A stretch of DNA of 20,980 nt from a virus (taxonomy: Duplodnaviria; Heunggongvirae; Uroviricota; Caudoviricetes): IMG/VR virus record IMGVR_UViG_2695420487_000014, one strand, 5' to 3'. The translations under genes were made by a program, and so were the position numbers. The notes under the pieces were generated by a model. The model saw only the letters and a list, made by a program, of their open reading frames with translations, had not been told where the DNA came from and ran no database searches. Positions 1-19,660 of the stretch are shown here, one piece after another. Every line of letters starts with the position of its first letter. The first letter of the stretch is position 1.

Positions 1-222
1 TCAGTATCTCGATAAGCGCAGAGAAATGATGCAGTGGTGGGCGGATTGGCTTGATGAAAAAGTGGAGTAATCCGGACCGTACTTCTTTATCCAGGCATAA
101 AGGCTGTGGGTGGTGATATCGAGACGTGTTGCAACGCTGGCAACAGAATAACCGCGATCAACAACCTGTTTGACTGCTTCAGTTTTAAACTCTTCGGGAT
201 AACGCTTACCGCTCATGGGCAC
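1..222 (-). CDS. IS3-family transposase OrfA-like protein (HTH N-terminus), 73-aa ORF whose stop sits at the window edge
   Basis: Translation MPMSGKRYPEEFKTEAVKQVVDRGYSVASVATRLDITTHSLYAWIKKYGPD has the helix-turn-helix N-terminus typical of IS3-family OrfA; GAGAGG Shine-Dalgarno 6-8 nt upstream of the ATG at 222; the last ~20 aa look unconserved and the remainder of the element lies outside the window. Confidence 0.55.
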   Translation of the reverse strand: MPMSGKRYPEEFKTEAVKQVVDRGYSVASVATRLDITTHSLYAWIKKYGPDYSTFSSSQSAHHCIISLRLSRY

Positions 223-270
223 CTCTCTTTAAGCCATCTTAAATGACTCTGAGGTGTCTGTTAAACCCGT
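223..270 (-). mobile_element. Probable left terminal region (inverted repeat) of the IS3-family element carrying the OrfA above
   Basis: On the minus strand the sequence begins TGAATCGCCACGG... (IS3-family ends typically start 5'-TG) and runs directly into the OrfA RBS/ATG; it abuts the point where IS2-like homology starts on the other strand. Confidence 0.35.
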
Positions 271-766
271 GGCGATTCAAAACTGCGTGTTACGTTCGCC
301 CTGGACTGTTGCGATCGTGAAGCCATAGACTGGGCCGCAAGCACGGGAGGTTACGATAAAGCGACAGTGCAGGATGTCATGTTAGGAGCGATAGAAAAAC
401 GCTTTGGCGATAAAGTACCGGAACAGTCCATCCAGTGGCTGACAGATAACGGTTCAGCGTATAGAGCGCATGAAACATGGCAGTTCGCCAGAGAGTTGAA
501 TCTGGAGCCCTGCACAACGGCAATCAGCAGTCCTCAGAGTAATGGAATGGCAGAAAGGTTCGTGAAAACGATGAAGGAAGACTACATCGCGTTCATGCCG
601 AAACCGAATGTAAGAACGGCATTGCATAATCTTGCAGTGGCGATCGAACATTACAATGAAAACCATCCGCACAGTGCGTTGGGTTATCGCTCTCCGCGAG
701 AATATCGACGTCAGCGGGTAACGTTAACTTAAGATACACCCCCTGTCTGGAAATAAGGGGGCAAGA
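271..766 (+). mobile_element. IS2-like (IS3 family, IS2 group) element, 3' remnant: transposase OrfB C-terminal DDE/rve domain plus right terminal inverted repeat
   Basis: Frame of ORF 367..732 extended upstream reads ...[42 protein letters not shown]...[21 protein letters not shown]...[16 protein letters not shown]...[14 protein letters not shown], co-linear with remembered IS2 InsD C-terminus (about 75 percent nt identity by eye); 3' end CTGTCTGGAAATAAGGGGGCAA resembles the IS2 right IR; the N-terminal ~180 codons and the orfA of this element are missing. Confidence 0.7.
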
Positions 767-773
767 ACAATGA

Positions 774-1526
774 TCAGATTCCCTGGTGAGTAAGAATTTT
801 ACTTTCTGAACTGCTCTGAGAGTATTGACTTGGAGAAACACCAAAATAACGTCTAAATACATAAGTAAAGTATGAGACACTGGCATAACCACAGACCTTA
901 GCTACTTTACTAATAGGATAACAACGAGTGCTGAGTAAATATTCAGCCATTTGCATCCTCTCATCAAGTATGATCTTACTGAATGATACCCCCTCTTCTT
1001 TCAATTTCCTCTTTAGTAAACTTTCGCTGAGATATAATCTTGATGATATATCCTTAAGACGCCATGGTGCAGATAAATCCGTATGAATAATCGTTTTAAC
1101 TTTAGCCCCTGTGCTTTTCAAACATTCAAACAGAAATACTCCAAATTGTTTTTCAGAAGAAAATGCAGAGAGACATGTAAAAGCAATAGACTCATCAAAA
1201 ATTTCTATGTATTCAGCACAGTGATTAGCCCAACTAATTAATCCTTTAATTAAACTGAAGTCAGCAAAGTTTATTTTTAAATAAGATGGATATTCCCTAC
1301 AATCAGAAATATCCCTTAAGTTATTAGCTTTCAAATAGCGACTAATAAACTCAGCGCCAAAATCCGCCACTATCACTCTTTCAGGATATGTCAGGAAAAA
1401 ATCTCTAGAGCTAGAGTCGACAAGTACAGATGAACCTCTCTCCAGAAACACACTCTCTTTTCCGAAATAAACATCAAAGGACTCCAAAATCAATATAACT
1501 GAACATGTAGTTGCCATATCATCCAC
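774..1526 (-). CDS. AraC/XylS-family transcriptional regulator (AppY/EnvY-like), low GC
   Basis: 250-aa ORF; C-terminus ...WRLKDISSRLYLSESLLKRKLKEEGVSFSKIILDERMQMAEYLLSTRCYPISKVAKVCGYASVSYFTYVFRRYFGVSPSQY is a canonical AraC double-HTH domain, roughly 50 percent identical to the remembered AppY C-terminus; AT-rich codon usage suggests horizontal acquisition; start could be M1 (1526) or M4 (1517). Confidence 0.8.
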   Translation of the reverse strand: MDDMATTCSVILILESFDVYFGKESVFLERGSSVLVDSSSRDFFLTYPERVIVADFGAEFISRYLKANNLRDISDCREYPSYLKINFADFSLIKGLISWANHCAEYIEIFDESIAFTCLSAFSSEKQFGVFLFECLKSTGAKVKTIIHTDLSAPWRLKDISSRLYLSESLLKRKLKEEGVSFSKIILDERMQMAEYLLSTRCYPISKVAKVCGYASVSYFTYVFRRYFGVSPSQYSQSSSESKILTHQGI

Positions 1527-3021: not shown

Positions 3022-3603
3022 TTACCCTATAGGTGCTACTGGCCATTCAATATCCTGTGCAGTTGACGTATCAACACGGTTCAGCAATACCCGATACTTT
3101 TTCCAGGCTTCCAGCAACAAGGTTTCTTCCTCCGTTGCGATTTCCAGATCCACAGCATCCTGAAGCGGCGCTATATGCTCACTGGCTACCTGCATCAGGC
3201 TGTTTTTTGTTTCTTCCACCTCCCGGATCCGGAACAGTTTTTCTGCTTCCGTATCCTTCACCCAGGCTGTGCCGTTCCACTTCTGAAACTCCCCTTCCGG
3301 GGATAACCAGGTAACATTTTCCGGTAATGAGCCGAGTTCAGAAATAAATAACGCGTCCCCTGATGCCACGTCATAAACTGTTTTACCCCGATGGTCTTCA
3401 ACAAGATGCCACGATGACTCATCACTGTTGAAAACAGCCACGAAGCCAGCCGGAATATCTGGCGGTGCAATATCGGTACTGTTTGCTGGCAGACCTGTAT
3501 GAGGCGGAATATATGCATCACCTTCACCAATAAATTCATTAGTTCCGGCCAGCAGATTATAAATTTTTATGGTCCGTGGTTGTTCACTCATTCTGAATGC
3601 CAT
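3022..3603 (-). CDS. tfa: Tail fiber assembly protein (Tfa, lambda Tfa / P2 gpG family)
   Basis: 193-aa [43 protein letters not shown]...; start ATG overlaps the stf stop (TAATG) as in lambda stf-tfa. Confidence 0.9.
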
Positions 3604-4874
3604 TATGCAAGCCTCACAATATAGTTAAATGCGATGTTTTTGACGGTGTTTTCCGCGTTACCAGCAGCGTTAACGGTGATGGTGTGTCCGTGTGAGCCAA
3701 TCGCAACGGAGTGCGTATGAGCACCAATACCGACAGTATGTGCATGTGCGCCTGCGCTTGCAGCAGTGCCGGACAGCGAGTGGGTATGAGCACCATCTGA
3801 TGATGTCTTCCCTGCATTACGAGTCTGGCCACTACCGCTTGTTGTGCTCATAATCCCCGCGCTTAGATTTGAAATCGCGGTATAACCATTAGGGAAAATG
3901 CTCGTGTTCGTGCCACCAAATGCACCGGAACTCTTGTGTTGGTGCGCACCGGCACTATTTGCAGTCCCGCTAATACTATGGGTATGCGCCCCGGTGTTAT
4001 TCGTGGATTTGGTTCCGTAATCAAACGACGATGTGTTTTTCGTCCCCAAATCCGTACTGGATGCGCTGGCGCTGTGGGTGTGCGATTTAATGCCGTCCTG
4101 TTCCTGAGACAATACGGCACGACCACTGGCGGGTTTGCCCTTAATCGTCCAGCCACGCATATCAGGGATCACGGCTGACGGATAAGCGGCTGCAAGTTTC
4201 GGGTATGCAGATTTGTCAAAAGTCTGCCCCTGCATCAGGGCATAGCCAGACGGAACGGTATCTGATGGCCACGGGATTGGTGCGCCAGGCGGATAAAACT
4301 GCTCTGATGGCGTATAGAGTGAATAAACTGTACCGTCCGTTAACCCTTCCGGCTTATTAGCAGAATATGCTGGTGACGTATGAATCGTCACGCTGGCATT
4401 ACTGGTATAATCCCATTGAATATTTACACCAGTCGCATAATTTCCGATTGCAACGTAAATATCGTAAGTATCACCAGATGTATTGACCCAGGCAAAATTT
4501 GTAAACCCTGTCGATGTGCGCTGCCATAAAGCACCAGTAATCCCCTTCGGATTACCATTACCTGCACGCAAAACAAGTTCAGATATACCTGCCTGTTGAG
4601 GTGACCCCACGTTAAATCCCGCGCCACCAATCAACGTAATTGAAACAACAGAACTCGCCTGTGGCATGGTTACCGTTGCTAATTTGAACCAACCAGCACC
4701 ACCGCTGAATGACATTGTTGTTGAGTTAAGCGTACCAATATCTTTCGGCGTCAGTGTTATATCCGCTGAAAGCGCCTTACCATTCACCTTACGGGCAGAA
4801 GGTAGCCAGCTCATACGCGGCCTTAACGGCTTTTGGCGTTGCCGCCAGTGACTCGGAAGTGCTGTTAGTCGCAC
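3603..4874 (-). CDS. stf: Side tail fiber protein, C-terminal receptor-binding part (P2 gpH-like tip with HxH repeats); out of frame with the upstream stf segment
   Basis: ...[75 protein letters not shown]...GAHTHS...[49 protein letters not shown] is co-linear with the remembered P2 H C-terminus; frame differs from ORF 4789..6105. Confidence 0.85.
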
Positions 4875-6046
4875 TGCTGAGCTGTACTATCCCCTTTTTC
4901 GTCGTGCTCGCATCCTCAAGCGCCACGGCGGATGCAATATCCTCTGCCCGTTTTGCTGCTGTCTCGGCGCGCGTTGCCGCGGATTCCGCCGTACTTTTGC
5001 TCTGAGCTGCCGCCGTCGCACTGCCAGCTGCCTCTGTCGCCTTCGTGGATGCCGTCGTGGCGCTGCCCTTCGCTGCTGACGCCTGTCTGGTCGTCTCATC
5101 TTTTGAAGCAGACGCCGATGATGCCGATGACGCCGCCGAACTGGCTGACGATGCGGCAGCCGTTTTTGAGGATTCTGCGCTGGTTTCCGACGCTTTCGCG
5201 TTCGTTTCGGATGTCTTCGCTGCGGAAGCTGACCTCGCTGCTGCCGTGGCCTGTTCAGTGGCTTCGCCAGCCTTCGTTGTGGCTGTTGAAGCGGATGATG
5301 CGGCGCTTTCTGCCGACTTTCCGGCAGCGGTGGCACTGGCTGAGGCCTGCCCGGCATTTGTTGACGCGGCGCTGGCAGATGAGGCAGCCGCTGTTTTTGA
5401 GTCTGCTGCTGCGGAGGCACTCTGTGCTGCTGCCGTCTCAGAAGACTTAGCGTTCGTCTCGGACGTTTTTGCCGCCTTCGCGGAATTTCCTGCCGCTGTT
5501 GCCGAGGAGGCTGCACTACTGGCGCTCGAGGCTGCGCTCGTTTCTGATGATTTTGCCGCCTCTTTTGAGGCCGCCGCATCCCGGGCTGAGGTGGCAGCTT
5601 CTGACGCCTTCGTGGTCGCGGCGGATGCAGAAGTGGCTGCTGATTGTTGTGACGCTGCCGCATTCGTTTCTGACGTTTTCGCCGCAGCGGCACTGGTAGC
5701 TGCCGCGCTTTTTGAGGACTCTGCAGCAGCAGCACTTTTCGATGCTTCACTGGCCTTTGTTGATGCCGTTCCTGCGCTGGAAGATGCTGACTGAGCAGAT
5801 GATGCAGCCTGTCCGGCTGACGTGCTGGCGGCACGAGCTGAGCCTGCAGCATCGGTTGTATGAGTTGCCGCCTCACTGGCAGATGTGCTGGCATCACTGG
5901 CTGACTTCTTCGCGGCTGCCGTGTTCTGTGCCACTGCGGACGCGTTACGCGCCACCTCTTCCACCATCAGTTCAAAACGGCGCAGAGCCTCCGGACGGGC
6001 ATCATCCTCCGTCATGGCACCGAGAAAATCATTCAGCGTACCGGGT
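4789..6046 (-). pseudogene. stf: Side tail fiber protein, central Ala/Ser-rich shaft segment (lambda Stf-like), 5'-truncated at a deletion junction and 3'-frameshifted
   Basis: ...[40 protein letters not shown]...AKTSETNAAASQQSAATSA...[29 protein letters not shown] matches lambda Stf from about residue 95 onward; the first ~20 codons of the called ORF ([20 protein letters not shown]) are Nu1 DNA read out of frame. Confidence 0.8.
4890..5900 (-). repeat. GC-rich low-complexity coding repeat (Ala/Ser/Thr-rich stf shaft; reiterated AKTSETNA / SSASSA motifs)
   Basis: Reiterated GCn/TCn-rich codon blocks visible in the sequence; generates long spurious ORFs in five other frames. Confidence 0.6.
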
Positions 6047-6406
6047 CCGCGACAACACGAAAGTACAGAATGCGGTTTCCACCACTTCAGCGGAGTCTCT
6101 GGCATTCTTCAGTTCCTGTGCGTCGGCCTGCGCACGCGTAAGTCGATGGCGTTCGTACTCAATAGTCCCTGGCTGGAGATCTGCCTCGCTGGCCTGCCGC
6201 AGTTCTTCAACCTCCCGGCGCAGCTTTTCGTTCTCAATTTCAGCATCCCTTTCGGCATACCATTTTATGACGGCGGCAGAGTCATAAAGCACCTCATTAC
6301 CCTTGCCACCGCCTCGCAGAACGGGCATTCCCTGTTCCTGCCAGTTCTGAATGGTACGGATACTCGCACCGAAAATGTCAGCCAGCTGCTTTTTGTTGAC
6401 TTCCAT
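6047..6406 (-). pseudogene. nu1: Terminase small subunit Nu1, N-terminal 120 codons (winged-helix cosB-binding domain), fused out of frame to stf by deletion
   Basis: [120 protein letters not shown] matches remembered lambda Nu1 residues 1-120, then diverges (TRYAE stop). Confidence 0.85.
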
Positions 6407-6409
6407 TGT

Positions 6410-6600
6410 TCATTCCACGGACAAAAACAGAGAAAGGAAACGACAGAGGCCAAAAAGCTCGCTTTCAGCACCTGTCGCTTCCTTTCTTTTCAGAGGGTAT
6501 TTTAAATAAAAACATTAAGTTATGACGAAGAAGAACGGAAACGCCTTAAACCGGAAAATTTTCATAAATAGCGAAAACCCGCGAGGTCGCCGCCCCGTAA
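6410..6600 (-). other. cos: cos site: cosN 12-nt cohesive-end sequence (GGGCGGCGACCT on the minus strand at 6584..6595) and cosB between cosN and the nu1 start
   Basis: Minus strand reads ...GATCCGACAGGTTACG GGGCGGCGACCT CGCGGGTTTTCGCTATTTATGAAAATTTTCCGG..., matching lambda right end / cohesive end / left end from memory. Confidence 0.75.
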
Positions 6601-6794
6601 CCTGTCGGATCGCCGGAAAGGACCCGCAAAATGATAATAATTATCATCTACATGTCACAACGTGCATCTACGCCATCAAACCACGTCAAATAATCAATTA
6701 TGACGCAGGTATCGTATTAATTGATCTGCATCAACTTAACGTAAAAACAACTTCAGACAATACAAATCAGCGACACTGAATACGGGGCAACCTC

Positions 6795-6989
6795 ATGTCT
6801 ACGAAGAACAGAACCCGCAGAACAACAACCCGCAACATCCGCTTTCCTAACCAAATGATTGAACAAATTAACATCGCTCTTGAGCAAAAAGGGTCCGGGA
6901 ATTTCTCAGCCTGGGTCATTGAAGCCTGCCGTCGGAGACTAACGTCAGAAAAGAGAGCATATACATCAATTAAAAGTGATGAAGAATGA
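6795..6989 (+). CDS. ylcI: Small prophage protein, YlcI-like (DUF3950), 64 aa
   Basis: MSTKNRTRRTTTRNIRFPNQMIEQINIALEQKGSGNFSAWVIEACRRRLTSEKRAYTSIKSDEE; position between cos and bor as in DLP12. Confidence 0.6.
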   Translation: MSTKNRTRRTTTRNIRFPNQMIEQINIALEQKGSGNFSAWVIEACRRRLTSEKRAYTSIKSDEE

Positions 6990-7153
6990 ACATCCCGCGT
7001 TCTTCCCTCCGAACAGGACGATATTGTAAATTCACTTAATTACGAGGGCATTGCAGTAATTGAGTTGCAGTTTTACCACTTTCCTGACAGTGACAGACTG
7101 CGTGTTGGCTCTGTCACAGGCTAAATAGTTTGAATGATTAGCAGTTATGGTGA

Positions 7154-7360
7154 TCAGTCAACCACCAGGGAATAATCCTTCATATTATTATCGTGCTTCA
7201 CCAACGCTGCCTCAATTGCTCTGAATGCTTCCAGAGACACCTTATGTTCTATACATGCAATTACAACATCAGGGTAACTCATAGAAATGGTGCTATTAAG
7301 CATATTTTTTACACGAATCAGATCCACGGAGGGATCATCAGCAGATTGTTCTTTATTCAT
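7154..7360 (-). CDS. ybcW: Small prophage protein, YbcW-like, 68 aa
   Basis: [68 protein letters not shown]; GGAG Shine-Dalgarno upstream of the ATG at 7360. Confidence 0.55.
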
Positions 7361-7645
7361 TTTGTCGCTCCATGCGCTTGCTCTTCATCTAGCGGTTAAA
7401 ATATTACTTCAAATCTTTCTGTATGAAGATTTGAGCACGTTGGCCTTACATACATCTGTCGGTTGTATTTCCCTCCAGAATGCCAGCAGGACCGCACTTT
7501 GTTACGCAACCAATACTATTAAGTGAAAACATTCCTAATATTTGACATAAATCATCAACAAAACACAAAGAGGTCAGACCAGATTGAAACGATAAAAACG
7601 ATAATGCAAACTACGCGCCCTCGTATCACATGGAAGGTTTTACCA

Positions 7646-8056
7646 ATGGCTCAGGTTGCCATTTTTAAAGAAATATTCGATCAAGTGCGAAAAGATTTAA
7701 ACTGTGAATTGTTTTATTCTGAACTAAAACGTCACAACGTCTCACATTATATTTACTATCTAGCCACAGATAATATTCACATCGTGTTAGAAAACGATAA
7801 CACCGTGTTAATAAAAGGACTTAAAAAGGTTGTAAATGTTAAATTCTCAAGAAACACGCATCTTATAGAAACGTCCTATGATAGGTTGAAATCAAGAGAA
7901 ATCACATTTCAGCAATACAGGGAAAATCTTGCTAAAGCAGGAGTTTTCCGATGGGTTACAAATATCCATGAACATAAAAGATATTACTATACCTTTGATA
8001 ATTCATTACTATTTACTGAGAGCATTCAGAACACTACACAAATCTTTCCACGCTAA
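7646..8056 (+). CDS. ybcV: YbcV-like protein (DUF1398), 136 aa from the ATG with the best RBS (ORF is open from 7523)
   Basis: [50 protein letters not shown]...; GGAAGG Shine-Dalgarno ~10 nt upstream of the ATG at 7646; the upstream in-frame GTG/ATG starts lack an RBS. Confidence 0.6.
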
Positions 8057-8346
8057 ATCATAACGTCCGGTTTCTTCCGTGTCAGCACCGGGGCGTTGGC
8101 ATAATGCAATACGTGTACGCGCTAAACCCTGTGTGCATCGTTTTTAATTATTCCCGGACACTCCCGCAGAGAAGTTCCCCGTCAGGGCTGTGGACATAGT
8201 TAATCCGGGAATACAATGACGATTCATCGCACCTGACATACATTAATAAATATTAACAATATGAAATTTCAACTCATTGTTTAGGGTTTGTTTAATTTTC
8301 TACACATACGATTCTGCGAACTTCAAAAAGCATCGGGAATAACACC

Positions 8347-8640
8347 ATGAAAAAAATGCTACTCGCTACTGCGCTGGCCCTGCTTATTACAGGATGTGCT
8401 CAACAGACGTTTACTGTTCAAAACAAACCGGCAGCAGTAGCACCAAAGGAAACCATCACCCATCATTTCTTCGTTTCTGGAATTGGGCAGAAGAAAACTG
8501 TCGATGCAGCCAAAATTTGTGGCGGCGCAGAAAATGTTGTTAAAACAGAAACCCAGCAAACATTCGTAAATGGATTGCTCGGTTTTATTACTTTAGGCAT
8601 TTATACTCCGCTGGAAGCGCGTGTGTATTGCTCACAATAA
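8347..8640 (+). CDS. bor: Bor lipoprotein (serum-resistance-associated outer membrane lipoprotein), 97 aa
   Basis: MKKMLLATALALLITGCAQQTFTVQNKPAAVAPKETITHHFFVSGIGQKKTVDAAKICGGAENVVKTETQQTFVNGLLGFITLGIYTPLEARVYCSQ matches lambda Bor; lipobox LITGC; oriented opposite to the lysis genes as in lambda. Confidence 0.9.
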   Translation: MKKMLLATALALLITGCAQQTFTVQNKPAAVAPKETITHHFFVSGIGQKKTVDAAKICGGAENVVKTETQQTFVNGLLGFITLGIYTPLEARVYCSQ

Positions 8641-8671
8641 TTGCATGAGTTGCCCATCGATATGGGCAACT

Positions 8672-9133
8672 CTATCTGCACTGCTCATTAATATACTTCT
8701 GGGTTCCTTCCAGTTGTTTTTGCATAGTGATCAGCCTCTCTCTGAGGGTGAAATAATCCCGTTCAGCGGTGTCTGCCAGTCGGGGGGAGGCTGCATTATC
8801 CACGCCGGAGGCGGTGGTGGCTTCACGCACTGACTGACAGACTGCTTTGATGTGCAACCGACGACGACCAGCGGCAACATCATCACGCAGAGCATCATTT
8901 TCAGCTTTCGCATCAGCTAACTCCTTCGTGTATTTTGCATCGAGCGCAGCAACATCACGCTGACGCATCTGCATGTCAGTAATTGCCGCGTTCGCCAGCT
9001 TCAGTTCTCTGGCATTTTTGTCGCGCTGGGCTTTGTAGGTAATGGCGTTATCACGGTAATGATTAACAGCCCATGACAGGTAGACGATGATGCAGATAAC
9101 CAGAGCGGAGATAATCGCGGTTACTCTGTTCAT
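8672..9133 (-). CDS. Rz: Spanin inner-membrane subunit Rz (i-spanin), lambda type
   Basis: [80 protein letters not shown]... nearly identical to remembered lambda Rz; ATG at 9133 overlaps the R stop (ATGA). Confidence 0.9.
8731..8913 (-). CDS. Rz1: Spanin outer-membrane lipoprotein subunit Rz1 (o-spanin), embedded in Rz in the +1 frame
   Basis: [60 protein letters not shown] matches lambda Rz1; lipobox VVGC and proline-rich stalk. Confidence 0.85.
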
Positions 9134-10429: not shown

Positions 10430-11512
10430 ATGAAAAAATTAACAGTGGCAATTTCTGCTGTAGCTGCATCAGTACTGATGGCGATGTCTGCTCAGGCAGC
10501 TGAAATTTATAATAAAGACAGTAACAAGCTGGATCTGTACGGGAAAGTTAATGCTAAGCACTACTTCTCCTCTAATGATGCAGATGATGGTGATACTACT
10601 TATGCCCGTCTTGGGTTCAAAGGTGAAACCCAAATCAACGATCAACTGACTGGTTTCGGTCAGTGGGAATATGAATTCAAAGGCAACCGCGCTGAATCTC
10701 AAGGTTCCTCCAAAGATAAAACCCGTCTTGCCTTCGCTGGCCTGAAATTCGGTGACTACGGCTCCATCGATTATGGCCGTAACTACGGTGTAGCATACGA
10801 TATTGGTGCATGGACCGACGTTCTGCCAGAATTCGGTGGCGATACCTGGACCCAAACAGATGTATTCATGACTGGTCGCACCACAGGTGTTGCAACTTAT
10901 CGTAACAATGACTTCTTTGGTCTGGTTGATGGTCTGAACTTTAGTGCTCAGTATCAGGGTAAAAATGACCGCACTGACGTAACTGAAGCTAATGGTGATG
11001 GTTTCGGTTTCTCCACTACTTATGAGTATGAAGGATTCGGTGTAGGTGCAACCTATGCTAAATCTGACCGCACTAATAATCAGGTTATCTACGGTAACAA
11101 CAGCCTGAATGCATCTGGTCAAAATGCTGAAGTATGGGCAGCTGGTCTGAAATATGATGCGAACAACATCTATCTGGCTACCACCTATTCTGAAACCCAG
11201 AACATGACTGTTTTTGGTAATAACCATATTGCCAACAAAGCACAAAACTTCGAAGTAGTTGCACAATATCAGTTCGACTTCGGTCTGCGTCCGTCCGTTG
11301 CTTACCTGCAATCTAAAGGAAAAGACTTGGGTGCGTGGGGTGATCAGGACCTGGTTGAATATATTGATGTAGGTGCAACCTATTACTTCAACAAAAATAT
11401 GTCCACTTTTGTTGATTACAAAATCAACCTGATTGATAAGAGCGATTTCACGAAAGCATCTGGCGTTGCTACCGATGATATCGTTGCTGTAGGTATGGTT
11501 TACCAGTTCTAA
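10430..11512 (+). CDS. nmpC: Outer membrane porin NmpC/OmpD family (OmpC paralogue), apparently intact
   Basis: [23 protein letters not shown] signal peptide, then [24 protein letters not shown]... and C-terminal ...[12 protein letters not shown] (terminal Phe beta-barrel signature); located between Q and S on the opposite strand as in DLP12. Confidence 0.9.
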
Positions 11513-15379: not shown

Positions 15380-15827
15380 GTAATCATCCGATCTGCGTTA
15401 CCGAGTGGATGGATGAATGCCGCCGCGAACCATTCAAAACCCGCGAAGGCAGAGAAATTACGGGGCCGTGGCAGTCGCATCCCAAACGGATGTTACGGCA
15501 TAAAGCCATGATTCAGTGGCCCGTCTGGCCTTCGGATTTGCTGGTATCTATGACAAGGATGAAGCCGAGCGCATTGTCGAAAATACCGCATACACCGCAG
15601 AACGTCAGCCGGAACGCGACATTACTCCGGTTAACGATGAAACCATGCAGGAGATTAACACTCTGCTGATTGCCCTGGACAAAACATGGGATGACGACTT
15701 ATTGCCGCTCTGTTCCCAGATATTTCGCCGCGACATTCGCGCATCGTCAGAACTGACACAGGCCGAAGCAGTGAAAGCTCTTGGATTCCTGAAACAGAAA
15801 GCCACTGAGCAGAAGGTGGCAGCATGA
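15380..15827 (+). pseudogene. bet: Recombination protein Bet (lambda RecT-like), C-terminal ~150 codons only, with a 1-bp deletion frameshift near 15517
   Basis: NHPICVTEWMDECRREPFKTREGREITGPWQSHPKRMLRHKAMIQ in one frame and ARLAFGFAGIYDKDEAERIVENTAYTAERQPERDITPVNDETMQEINTLLIALDKTWDDDLLPLCSQIFRRDIRASSELTQAEAVKALGFLKQKATEQKVAA in the next, together matching remembered lambda Bet; upstream of ~15380 homology is lost. Confidence 0.85.
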
Positions 15828-15880
15828 CACCGGACATTATCCTGCAGCGTACCATCGATTGTGCTGACACTGCTGGATGA
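15824..15880 (+). pseudogene. exo: Exonuclease Exo 5' stub (first ~10 codons MTPDIILQRT, then unrelated sequence and a stop after 18 codons)
   Basis: ATG overlaps the bet stop in the lambda arrangement (GCAGCATGACACCGG); downstream sequence does not continue as exo. Confidence 0.5.
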
Positions 15881-18295: not shown

Positions 18296-18514
18296 ATGTA
18301 CTTGACACTTCAGGAGTGGAACGCTCGCCAGCGACGCCCAAGAAGCCTTGAAACAGTTCGTCGATGGGTGCGCGAATGCAGGATATTCCCTCCTCCGGTT
18401 AAGGATGGAAGAGAATATCTGTTCCACGAATCAGCGGTAAAGGTTGACTTAAATCGACCAGTAACAGGTAGCCTTTTGAAGAGGATCAGAAATGGGAAGA
18501 AGGCGAAGTCATGA
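18296..18514 (+). CDS. xis: Excisionase Xis (lambda type), 72 aa
   Basis: MYLTLQEWNARQRRPRSLETVRRWVRECRIFPPPVKDGREYLFHESAVKVDLNRPVTGSLLKRIRNGKKAKS matches lambda Xis; 3' end overlaps the int start. Confidence 0.9.
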   Translation: MYLTLQEWNARQRRPRSLETVRRWVRECRIFPPPVKDGREYLFHESAVKVDLNRPVTGSLLKRIRNGKKAKS

Positions 18515-19562
18515 GCGCCGGGATTTACCCCCTAACCTTTATATAAGAAACAATGGATATTACTGCTACAGGGACCCAAGGACGGGTAAAGAGTTTGGAT
18601 TAGGCCGAGACAGGCGAATCGCAATCACTGAAGCTATACAGGCCAACATTGAGTTATTTTCAGGACACAAACACAAGCCTCTGACAGCGAGAATCAACAG
18701 TGATAATTCCGTTACGTTACATTCATGGCTTGATCGCTACGAAAAAATCCTGGCCAGCAGAGGAATCAAGCAGAAGACACTCATAAATTACATGAGCAAA
18801 ATTAAAGCAATAAGGAGGGGTCTGCCTGATGCTCCACTTGAAGACATCACCACAAAAGAAATTGCGGCAATGCTCAATGGATACATAGACGAGGGAAAGG
18901 CGGCATCAGCCAAGTTAATCAGATCAACACTGAGCGATGCATTCCGAGAGGCTATGGCTGAAGGCCATATAACAACAAACCCGGTCGCAGCCACTCGCGC
19001 TGCAAAATCAGAGGTAAGGAGATCAAGACTTACGGCTGACGAATACCTGAAAATTTATCAAGCAGCAGAATCATCACCATGTTGGCTTAGACTTGCAATG
19101 GAACTGGCTGTTGTTACCGGGCAGCGAGTTGGTGATTTATGCGAAATGAAGTGGTCTGATATCGTAGATGGATATCTTTATGTCGAGCAAAGCAAAACAG
19201 GCGTAAAAATTGCCATCCCAACAACATTGCATGTTGATGCTCTCGGGATATCAATGAAGGAAACACTTGATAAATGCAAAAAGATTCTTGGCGGAGAAAC
19301 CATAATTGCATCTACTCGTCGTGAACCGCTTTCATCCGGCACAGTATCAAGGTATTTTATGCGCGCACGAAAAGCATCAGGTCTCTCCTTCGAAGGGGAT
19401 CCGCCAACCTTTCACGAGTTGCGCAGTTTGTCTGCAAGACTCTATGAGAAGCAGATAAGCGATAAATTTGCTCAACATCTTCTCGGGCATAAGTCGGACA
19501 CCATGGCATCACAGTATCGTGATGACAGAGGCAGGGAGTGGGACAAAATTGAAATCAAATAA
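18492..19562 (+). CDS. int: Site-specific tyrosine recombinase Int (lambda integrase), 356 aa
   Basis: MGRRRSHERRDLPPNLYIRNNGYYCYRDPRTGKEFGLGRDRRIAITEAIQANIELFSGHKHKPLTARINSDNSVTLHSWLDRYEKILASRGIKQ...HELRSLSARLYEKQISDKFAQHLLGHKSDTMASQYRDDRGREWDKIEIK matches lambda Int nearly residue for residue, including the catalytic R-H-R-Y context. Confidence 0.95.
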   Translation: MGRRRSHERRDLPPNLYIRNNGYYCYRDPRTGKEFGLGRDRRIAITEAIQANIELFSGHKHKPLTARINSDNSVTLHSWLDRYEKILASRGIKQKTLINYMSKIKAIRRGLPDAPLEDITTKEIAAMLNGYIDEGKAASAKLIRSTLSDAFREAMAEGHITTNPVAATRAAKSEVRRSRLTADEYLKIYQAAESSPCWLRLAMELAVVTGQRVGDLCEMKWSDIVDGYLYVEQSKTGVKIAIPTTLHVDALGISMKETLDKCKKILGGETIIASTRREPLSSGTVSRYFMRARKASGLSFEGDPPTFHELRSLSARLYEKQISDKFAQHLLGHKSDTMASQYRDDRGREWDKIEIK

Positions 19563-19660
19563 TGATTTTATTTTGACTGATAGTGACCTGTTCGTTGCAA
19601 CAAATTGATAAGCAATGCTTTTTTATAATGCCAACTTAGTATAAAAAAGCAGGCTTCAAC
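19563..19660. other. attL: attL prophage-host junction: lambda P' arm (19563..19635), 15-bp core TTAGTATAAAAAAGC (19636..19650; reverse complement of GCTTTTTTATACTAA) and host B arm (AGGCTTCA)
   Basis: Sequence AATGATTTTATTTTGACTGATAGTGACCTGTTCGTTGCAACAAATTGATAAGCAATGCTTTTTTATAATGCCAAC TTAGTATAAAAAAGC AGGCTTCA matches lambda attP P' arm plus core, then the E. coli attB arm. Confidence 0.8.

Follow-up and report, generated by a model that had tools for sequence, protein, structure and literature searches.

How does the gene for a phage terminase small subunit come to run, out of frame, into the middle of a side tail fibre gene? This arrangement occurs in the 20,980-nucleotide stretch of DNA analysed here (the window), and a first-pass annotation of its letters and open reading frames had ascribed it to a single deletion in a cryptic prophage. 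Over its whole length, the window corresponds to part of the E. coli 23CRST021 chromosome (NZ_AP045777.1, 3041789-3062769); the identity rounds to 100.0%, and the two differ in length by 1 base. The prophage it contains occupies attB-lambda, the site at which lambda classically inserts, and lies there in lambda orientation, with the bio genes to one side (bioABFCD-ybhB) and the gal genes to the other (ybhC...modABC...galETK). The integration end is marked by two features:

19636 to 19650, minus strand: lambda att core GCTTTTTTATACTAA (attL), an exact match (0 expected by chance), between int and ybhC.
18297 to 19562, plus strand: xis and int, the latter for a 356-aa lambda-type integrase (ORF list and PGAP annotation).

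Read from right to left, the PGAP gene order begins with int and xis, continues through a few early-left genes and the recT' and ren' pseudogenes, and reaches nin-region genes (ybcN, ninE, ybcO, rusA and ylcG). Beyond these lie quuD, an ompC/nmpC-like porin gene, essD-rrrD-rzpD, bor, ybcV, ybcW and ylcI, and after ylcI come a truncated DNA-packaging gene, a broken tail gene, tfa, a gene for an AraC-family regulator and IS remnants. We found no genes for a terminase large subunit, portal, capsid or tail in the annotation or open reading frames of the window, and no cI, cro, O or P in the window. The element is integrated at a phage att site and flanked on either side by host genes, with int and xis next to one of its borders, and it is missing virion and replication genes, as judged from the annotation and open reading frames. 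It is a cryptic (defective) lambdoid prophage. The first-pass annotation had classified it as such and correctly listed the integration, nin, Q, lysis and cos modules among those kept, but it missed the loss of the immunity and replication region, and the element is decayed further than was stated. The early region carries two scars:

15382 to 15383, no strand: ren'/recT' (bet') junction, from PGAP pseudogene boundaries.
15851 to 15853, no strand: early-region deletion junction, with the first codons of exo to one side and the interior of an ead/Ea22-like gene to the other.

The deletion behind the first scar took P, O, cII, cro, cI, N, gam and the start of bet. Its junction is common to all closely related sister prophages, which implies that their common ancestor was already without immunity and replication genes; the whole interval is present in a fuller relative, TUM1887. 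The second scar, which removed 1.7 kb at an ACC microhomology, is specific to the window's clade. Both had gone unnoticed in the first reading, as had a 275-bp frameshifting deletion in stf that is described below.

On the late side, a block closely related to lambda leads through cos to the junction in question:

6596 to 9133, minus strand: lambda right-arm block (Rz, bor, on to cos), 99.3% identical to lambda 45966-48502.
6407 to 6640, minus strand: cos region (cosB, cosN and cosQ), compared base by base with circularised lambda cos.
6029 to 6406, minus strand: nu1' pseudogene, with codons 1-120 at 6047-6406 and five out-of-frame, stf-derived codons plus a stop at 6029-6046.
6046 to 6047, no strand: deletion junction between nu1 (lambda 551) and stf (lambda 19895), from a three-way alignment of the window with both flanks in the PEC1009 sister prophage.

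The left end of lambda (position 1) corresponds to window position 6595, and the 12-nt cohesive end to 6584-6595. Both cosN and cosB are identical to lambda base for base, and the cosQ side has 4 mismatches in 45 bases. Downstream of cos, the minus-strand open reading frame at 6029-6406 encodes 125 aa, the first 120 of which are identical to lambda Nu1 (120/120) and the last five of which are TRYAE, followed by a stop at 6029. This bears out the initial description of a lambda Nu1 that gives way to five unrelated codons. The Pfam family Phage_Nu1 (PF07471) matches with E = 7e-75 over profile positions 1-121 of 164, such that the N-terminal DNA-binding part is present and the C-terminal part (profile 122-164, the gpA-binding end) is absent. 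In lambda terminase, the N-terminus of Nu1 binds cosB and its C-terminal part binds gpA. Because this C-terminal part is gone and the window holds no gene A, nu1' is a pseudogene, and PGAP describes 6047-6406 as 'DNA-packaging protein, incomplete, missing C-terminus'.

The breakpoint was located by alignment to lambda and to a sister prophage. BLAST against lambda aligned window 6046-6595 with lambda 551-1 at 99.3% identity and window 5384-6046 with lambda stf 20557-19895 at 84% identity, leaving a lambda-equivalent gap of 19.3 kb. The parents at the break are lambda/PEC1009 nu1 and PEC1009 stf, and the two share a 2-bp microhomology at 6046/6047 (TC on the plus strand, GA on the coding strand). 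The stf parent reads ...CAGCGTACCGGGTC up to the break and GGGAATC beyond it, the nu1 parent reads ...CCTGCGATC and then CGCGACAAC, and the product joins ...CAGCGTACCGGGTC to CGCGACAAC. In coding-strand terms, the codons of nu1 are ...GTG TTG TCG CGG up to the break and ACC CGG TAC GCT GAA TGA after it, with stf read in the wrong frame. The out-of-frame junction that the first-pass annotation placed between nu1 codon 120 and the interior of stf is hence real, and the alignment and search for microhomology that it proposed yield a break at lambda 551 and 19895 with 2 bp (TC) shared. An 80-bp probe specific to this junction found it, identical, in seven complete genomes. No IS element or recombinase site was found at the junction, and none of 50,697 phage records spanned it.

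On the other side of the break, the tail fibre gene is itself in pieces:

4805 to 6045, minus strand: stf' fragment 1, from codon 82 to about codon 496, with no start codon of its own.
4804 to 4805, no strand: second junction, an internal stf deletion of 275 bp (about codons 497-587) that shifted the frame, with microhomology TA.
3603 to 4804, minus strand: stf' fragment 2, the C-terminal receptor-binding part with collar domain and fibre repeats (Pfam Collar and Phage_fiber).
3022 to 3603, minus strand: tfa, an intact tail fibre assembly gene (Pfam Caudo_TAP, E = 8e-43; PGAP annotation).

Fragment 1 consists of the end of the N-terminal domain and the Ala/Ser-rich repeat shaft, and it is 99.9% identical to PEC1009 stf. 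Stf-like sequence in another frame had been recognised below about position 6046, and Pfam phage_tail_N (PF08400) indeed matches there in a frame other than that of nu1', only at profile positions 83-134 of 134. Relative to the 987-aa PEC1009 protein, stf lost 244 nt at the junction, or 81 codons plus one base (residue 82 is the R of ...YEDSRPGTLN), rather than the first ~95 codons as originally estimated. A long open reading frame at 4789-6105 opens with an ATG at 6105, but this codon lies inside nu1 in a different frame and is not a real start of stf. The 275-bp deletion sits within repeated ...GKYTAQDATTAQKGIVQLS... units and splits the stf frame into two open reading frames (4789-6105 and 3603-4874); PGAP describes 3603-6045 as 'phage tail protein, frameshifted, incomplete, missing N-terminus'. 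Compared with the N-terminal domain (PF08400), shaft and collar that make up Stf, the remnant has neither a complete N-terminal domain with its own start nor, owing to the 275-bp deletion, an unbroken frame to the receptor-binding C-terminus. The scars at 4804/4805 and 15851-15853 occur in all examined members of the window's clade.

We would expect no functional product from the nu1/stf junction, given that Nu1' is without its gpA-binding part and has no gpA as a partner, and that Stf' is promoterless and startless with a frame that is broken again downstream. Both halves are already flagged as pseudogenes in RefSeq (PGAP annotation of 23CRST021).

When placed in the context of known prophages, the scar is an ordinary case of the well-known nu1/stf scars (DLP12, Qin and similar elements), and it is one of several alternatives in related strains. 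DLP12 and Qin of E. coli K-12 have the same architecture, wherein Q, lysis genes, cos and a nu1 homologue (nohD or nohA) abut truncated stf/tfa and the head and tail genes are deleted, and similar junctions occur at Qin-type and DLP12-type loci of other strains. Genes of DLP12 type are also found in the window's late region (quuD, the ompC/nmpC-like porin gene, essD, rrrD, rzpD, ybcV, ybcW and ylcI). Unlike DLP12 and Qin, which are at argU and ydfJ, the window's prophage is at attB-lambda between bio and gal. Its nu1 is cut at codon 120, whereas Qin/DLP12-type elements break at lambda 697-705 (codon ~170) or within A, and its Rz-cos-nu1 segment is 99.3% identical to lambda itself. Likeness to lambda further includes the att core, an integrase of the same length (356 aa), an identical cosN, identical Nu1 residues 1-120, and homologous Stf and Tfa. 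In contrast to lambda, the window is without A through lom and without the immunity/replication region, it has a DLP12-type Q/nin/lysis module and non-lambda cargo (the AraC-family regulator and IS remnants), and its stf is only 84-86% identical in DNA.

Junction-specific 80-bp probes identified the genomes with the window's junction and those with the junction of PEC1009 and EC416, and a search with the whole window, with retrieval of the matching loci, brought out further sister states. Within one clonal group, about 25 complete genomes have this att-lambda prophage, in at least five late-region and at least six early-region deletion states and with several IS insertions. The sister states share the same site, and all except the fuller TUM1887 have the ren'/recT' junction. 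For the junctions between nu1/A and stf, there are at least five alternatives within this one E. coli clonal group, four of them in sister prophages of 99.9% identity. In PEC1009 and EC416, nu1 extends to lambda 700 (codon 170) and is joined to lom at codon ~61, followed by an intact 987-aa stf. This prophage is at the same locus, collinear with the window at 99.9% identity, and differs from it by 892 bp at the nu1/stf junction. Compared with PEC1009, NCTC9040 and 1332KP are short of 886 bp: their nu1 is joined at codon ~16 to a point 76 bp ahead of stf, which is intact. The NCTC9041 type (about 11 genomes) has a full nohD, and its gene A, of which 1050 nt remain, runs into the final 1203 nt of stf; in E423 and VG48B2 gene A is joined to points at or beyond the end of stf. 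TUM1887 (98.6% identity) is fuller, retaining A, W, B, part of C, U, J, lom, stf and the whole immunity/replication region, with internal head and tail deletions already present.

Since the NCTC9041 type keeps part of A and PEC1009 keeps lom' and a full stf, each of these being absent from the other, their common ancestor had more than either, and at least two independent large deletions must have followed. We also considered whether SNPs could order the deletion states. Over 20 kb of prophage, one site (window 9910, T in the window's clade) defines the clade and none groups it with PEC1009, while 30-kb chromosomal flanks from representatives of three states are 4-6 SNPs apart and star-like. 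Prophage and flank SNPs alike form a star that does not resolve the order. The many deletion states set against the few SNPs per 20-30 kb imply that structural decay far outpaces point mutation at this locus.

What kind of event made the scar? It has identifiable parents that share few base pairs, and neither an IS nor a site-specific recombination site, as is characteristic of short-homology illegitimate deletion. The breakpoint and its 2-bp microhomology, the change of frame, the Pfam matches truncated on both sides, the absence of an IS and the recurrence in seven genomes argue strongly for this type of deletion. Judging from these sequence comparisons, the scar very probably arose through an illegitimate, presumably RecA-independent, deletion across 2 bp of microhomology, in an already defective lambda-like prophage at attB-lambda. 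By analogy, the junctions would resemble the products of slipped mispairing or alternative end joining in E. coli, with 2-6 bp of microhomology, no mobile element and loss of the intervening DNA. They differ from those deletions in that the prophage family displays strong endpoint reuse and a TA bias, neither of which is, to our knowledge, a described property of short-homology deletion pathways.

Both patterns emerged from a catalogue of all deletion junctions of the prophage family with identifiable parents. The stf site at window 4804 (the base after ...CGGGCAGAAGGTA) forms the left end of two deletions, the 275-bp one of the window and the one behind the NCTC9041 stf/A junction. Three different deletions end no more than 4 nt from one another at the start of exo (CTGCAGCGTACCGGGATC; site GCGTACCGG), and PEC1009 coordinate 18484 and TUM1887 coordinate 16523 (gene A) were each used twice. 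Six pairs of endpoints lie no more than 4 nt apart versus 0.08 expected under a uniform model, and a total of six was not attained in any of 20,000 simulations. At 11 of 13 junctions the microhomology includes TA, most often as TA itself or as GTA/ATA. By chance, 6.5% of junctions that share 2 bp or more would do so (binomial p of about 6e-12; about 2e-6 once reused sites are collapsed). IAL7255, a more distant relative that was held out and examined afterwards, contributed three new junctions, two of them with TA, bringing the overall count to 13 of 16.

Several other observations concern the positions of breaks. The stf side of the 6046/6047 junction directly follows CAGCGTACCGGG, a 12-mer that is also found at the exo hot site, and an unrelated prophage has an stf break 3 nt from the window's breakpoint. 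Elsewhere, in Qin-type, DLP12-type and other prophages, nu1-side breakpoints cluster at lambda 697-705, in GAACTGATACCGGGG.

These patterns raise the alternative that the family's junctions, the window's scars included, were made by a sequence-directed process of breakage and rejoining that prefers particular sites and T-A steps. We regard this as possible, though we do not lean towards it. The reuse of endpoints by different deletions (six close pairs versus 0.08 expected) and the TA microhomologies, both in the catalogue and at two of the three held-out junctions, are what such a process would leave, and the 12-mer beside the stf breakpoint and the unrelated break 3 nt away point in the same direction. 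However, the window's main junction has TC rather than TA, the description of the motif is post hoc, and the events may not be fully independent given hidden intermediates or shared ancestry. Nor does any candidate enzyme fit, as IS5 targets, an invertase or GTAC sites would account for only some of the endpoints. A narrower version of this idea, in which a site-preferring process that acts at T-A steps, frequently in (G/T)TA contexts beside CCGG/CGGG, drives the decay of the att-lambda prophage, is offered tentatively. On the same tentative reading, the products of this process would include the 4804 and 15851-15853 scars and possibly the stf side of 6046. No relevant description of a TA bias or of deletion hot spots in prophages was found in the literature.

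Known mechanisms were compared with the endpoints in turn. Lambda Int acting at secondary sites was rejected, as CAACTTNNT had a mean best match of 3.67 within 3 nt of 21 endpoints and of 3.89 at random positions. Local hairpins or quasi-palindromes were likewise rejected, with the mean 40-nt DNA folding energy being -2.69 kcal/mol at both endpoints and random positions (p = 0.25), and so was Chi-limited resection, there being no Chi site in either parental locus. By-eye checks found that only a minority of endpoints fit any one of the IS5 target YTAR, Gin/Pin/Cin invertase sites, integron secondary sites (crossover between G and TT), GTAC or CCGG restriction sites, and RusA cutting 5' of CC. 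There is no IS at any of the family's junctions that would indicate IS-mediated adjacent deletion. One endpoint in NCTC9104 (PEC1009 coordinate 18433) adjoins the IS1 target duplication of NCTC9040.

Returning to the illegitimate deletion across 2 bp, we asked in how many steps the DNA between nu1 and stf was lost. The probable path, in our view, consists of two steps through a PEC1009-like intermediate. An older deletion would have fused nu1 codon 170 to lom codon ~61, creating the state that survives in PEC1009 and EC416, and a later deletion of 892 bp would have taken the end of nu1, what was left of lom and the first 81 codons of stf. This path is favoured by the existence of that collinear, 99.9%-identical state, by the window's and NCTC9040 junctions both falling wholly inside segments that PEC1009 kept, and by the deletion sizes, with 892 and 886 bp being in line with other small deletions of the family (275-2177 bp). 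Against it, no SNP groups the window's clade with PEC1009 and EC416, and independent large deletions did occur (the NCTC9041 type versus PEC1009), such that a third is not far-fetched. We found no genome with the window's nu1/stf junction that was without the other two clade-specific deletions.

The initial explanation, a single deletion from nu1 codon 120 to stf codon 82 that took A to lom in one event, seems to us the less likely one. It would account for a simple junction with two parents and a 2-bp microhomology, it has precedent in the family's other independent large deletions from nu1/A into or past stf, and it is compatible with the absence of SNPs linking the window's clade to the PEC1009 state. 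Yet a collinear sister exists that had only 892 bp left to lose, and both ends of the deletion fall in short segments retained by that sister, which would have required luck if the parent had roughly 10-19 kb between nu1 and stf. Moreover, the closest fuller relative has internal head and tail deletions, making a loss of about 18 kb unlikely regardless. A single deletion does not follow from the junction, as PEC1009 and EC416 differ by just 892 bp here and other sisters have three more junctions that are incompatible with one another, and we consider it unproven and somewhat disfavoured. The true deletion was probably smaller than the lambda-equivalent 19 kb, in one step or two, because TUM1887, the nearest fuller relative, is already without much of the head/tail region. 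The figure of roughly 18 kb is slightly off, the lambda-equivalent gap being 19.3 kb.

Two further explanations deny that a deletion occurred in nature, and both are highly improbable. That a nu1-like gene of naturally small size stands next to a tail fibre gene independent of it, which the first-pass annotation had named as the finding that would overturn it, is contradicted by a nu1 frame that is 100% lambda to residue 120 and then continues into out-of-frame stf DNA, by an stf that is without a start codon and its first 82 N-terminal profile positions, and by 99.9%-identical sisters that hold the missing sequence of both sides, with no phage record over the junction. An assembly artefact, such as a collapse across repeats, might be suspected because stf is internally repetitive, but seven complete genomes, each sequenced independently and with origins that include Ecuador, China, the USA and an Asian series, have the identical junction, and the parents share only 2 bp, leaving no repeat to collapse across.

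The prophage described here is an example of how lambdoid prophages lose structural genes while keeping regulatory, lysis, cos and tail-fibre-tip modules. With all parental sequences at hand for exact reading of breakpoints, the locus is a natural time series of this decay. If endpoint reuse and TA bias were upheld at a larger scale, they would point to a specific mechanism of prophage erosion, and if the proposed T-A process were true, some of this erosion would be sequence-directed rather than random. Five places in the 23CRST021 genome match parts of the window, and this strain likely contains further lambdoid prophages. The intact cos could allow the remnant to be packaged by a helper lambdoid phage.

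We compared the deletion junctions of this prophage family by setting loci L009, L010, L015, L016, L017, L022, L023 and L027 against L012 (the PEC1009 prophage, a sister of the window's with stf intact) and L011. Microhomology containing TA was found at 13 of the 16 junctions, as against the 6.5% expected, and in most cases it was exactly TA, GTA or ATA. Four endpoints were each used again by different junctions.

Deletion endpoints in the window and related prophages
Window 4804-4805 (also L009 5004/5005 and L012 5004): 275-bp deletion in stf and its shared left endpoint
Window 15845-15853 (L012 17215-17223): endpoint site at the start of exo
L012 17221: exo-start break in the window's clade
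L012 17219: exo-start break in NCTC9041
L012 17223: exo-start break in the NCTC9100/RM10410/E423/NCTC9087 group
L003 7190, L005 7086-7090, L006 7139-7141 and L008 7281-7287: nu1-side breakpoints at lambda 697-705

The 275-bp deletion within stf shifts the reading frame, and its left endpoint lies directly after ...CGGGCAGAAGGTA. The same base is the stf endpoint of another deletion, which joins gene A to stf in sister prophages of the NCTC9041 type; the right-hand partners of both deletions terminate in TTTCCCGT(T)A. Among the sister prophages, the first codons of exo (CTGCAGCGTACCGGGATC) served as the endpoint of three different deletions. For the one shared by the NCTC9100/RM10410/E423/NCTC9087 group, the recombination partner lay in recT' and was an imperfect repeat, GCGT(T)ACCG.

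Endpoints also cluster on the nu1 side: in cryptic prophages that are independent of one another and occupy four different sites on the chromosome (att-lambda, Qin, DLP12 and one linked to pao), the breakpoints lie no more than 8 bp apart. These breakpoints fall in GAACTGATACCGGGG, corresponding to Nu1 codons ~169-171, and their partners differ, being either lom or one of three points in stf. In an unrelated prophage from a fox isolate, gene A (lambda 919) is joined to stf at lambda 19892 (L007 7037-7043), just 3 nt from the stf breakpoint of the window (lambda 19895, window 6046).

At window 15382, the pseudogenes ren' and recT' (bet') adjoin head to head, which is the product of one deletion that took out P, O, cII, cro, cI, N and gam together with the first part of bet. 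Because this junction is common to all closely related sister prophages (deletion states B-E), their common ancestor was already non-inducible.

Insertion sequences have also entered the att-lambda prophage many times across the sister genomes (loci L001, L010, L013, L014, L023, L026 and L027), including five separate insertions of IS1 as well as IS2, IS4, ISEc52 and a member of the IS3 family. In SCPM-O-B-12142, IS1 replaces window 3598-4467, which is the pattern of an IS1-adjacent deletion. A deletion endpoint in NCTC9104 (L012 18433) adjoins the IS1 target duplication present in NCTC9040.

The prophage end facing bio (window 1-1517) carries other DNA where lambda has its b region. As in DLP12, a porin gene separates Q (quuD) from the lysis cassette.

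Other gene content of the window
70-216 and 280-732: IS/transposase remnants
774-1517: intact AraC-family regulator gene
8347-8640: bor
10430-11512: ompC/nmpC-like porin gene, 360 aa

In RefSeq, the 23CRST021 record (L018) is one base longer than the window and otherwise identical; the difference lies between ~15853 and 16303, beyond which feature coordinates are shifted by +1. The chromosomal flank of 23CRST021 is without 98 bp of the tRNA-Lys/tRNA-Val array beside nadA that are present in PEC1009 and NCTC9041 (L019 24999-25080 versus L020 and L021).
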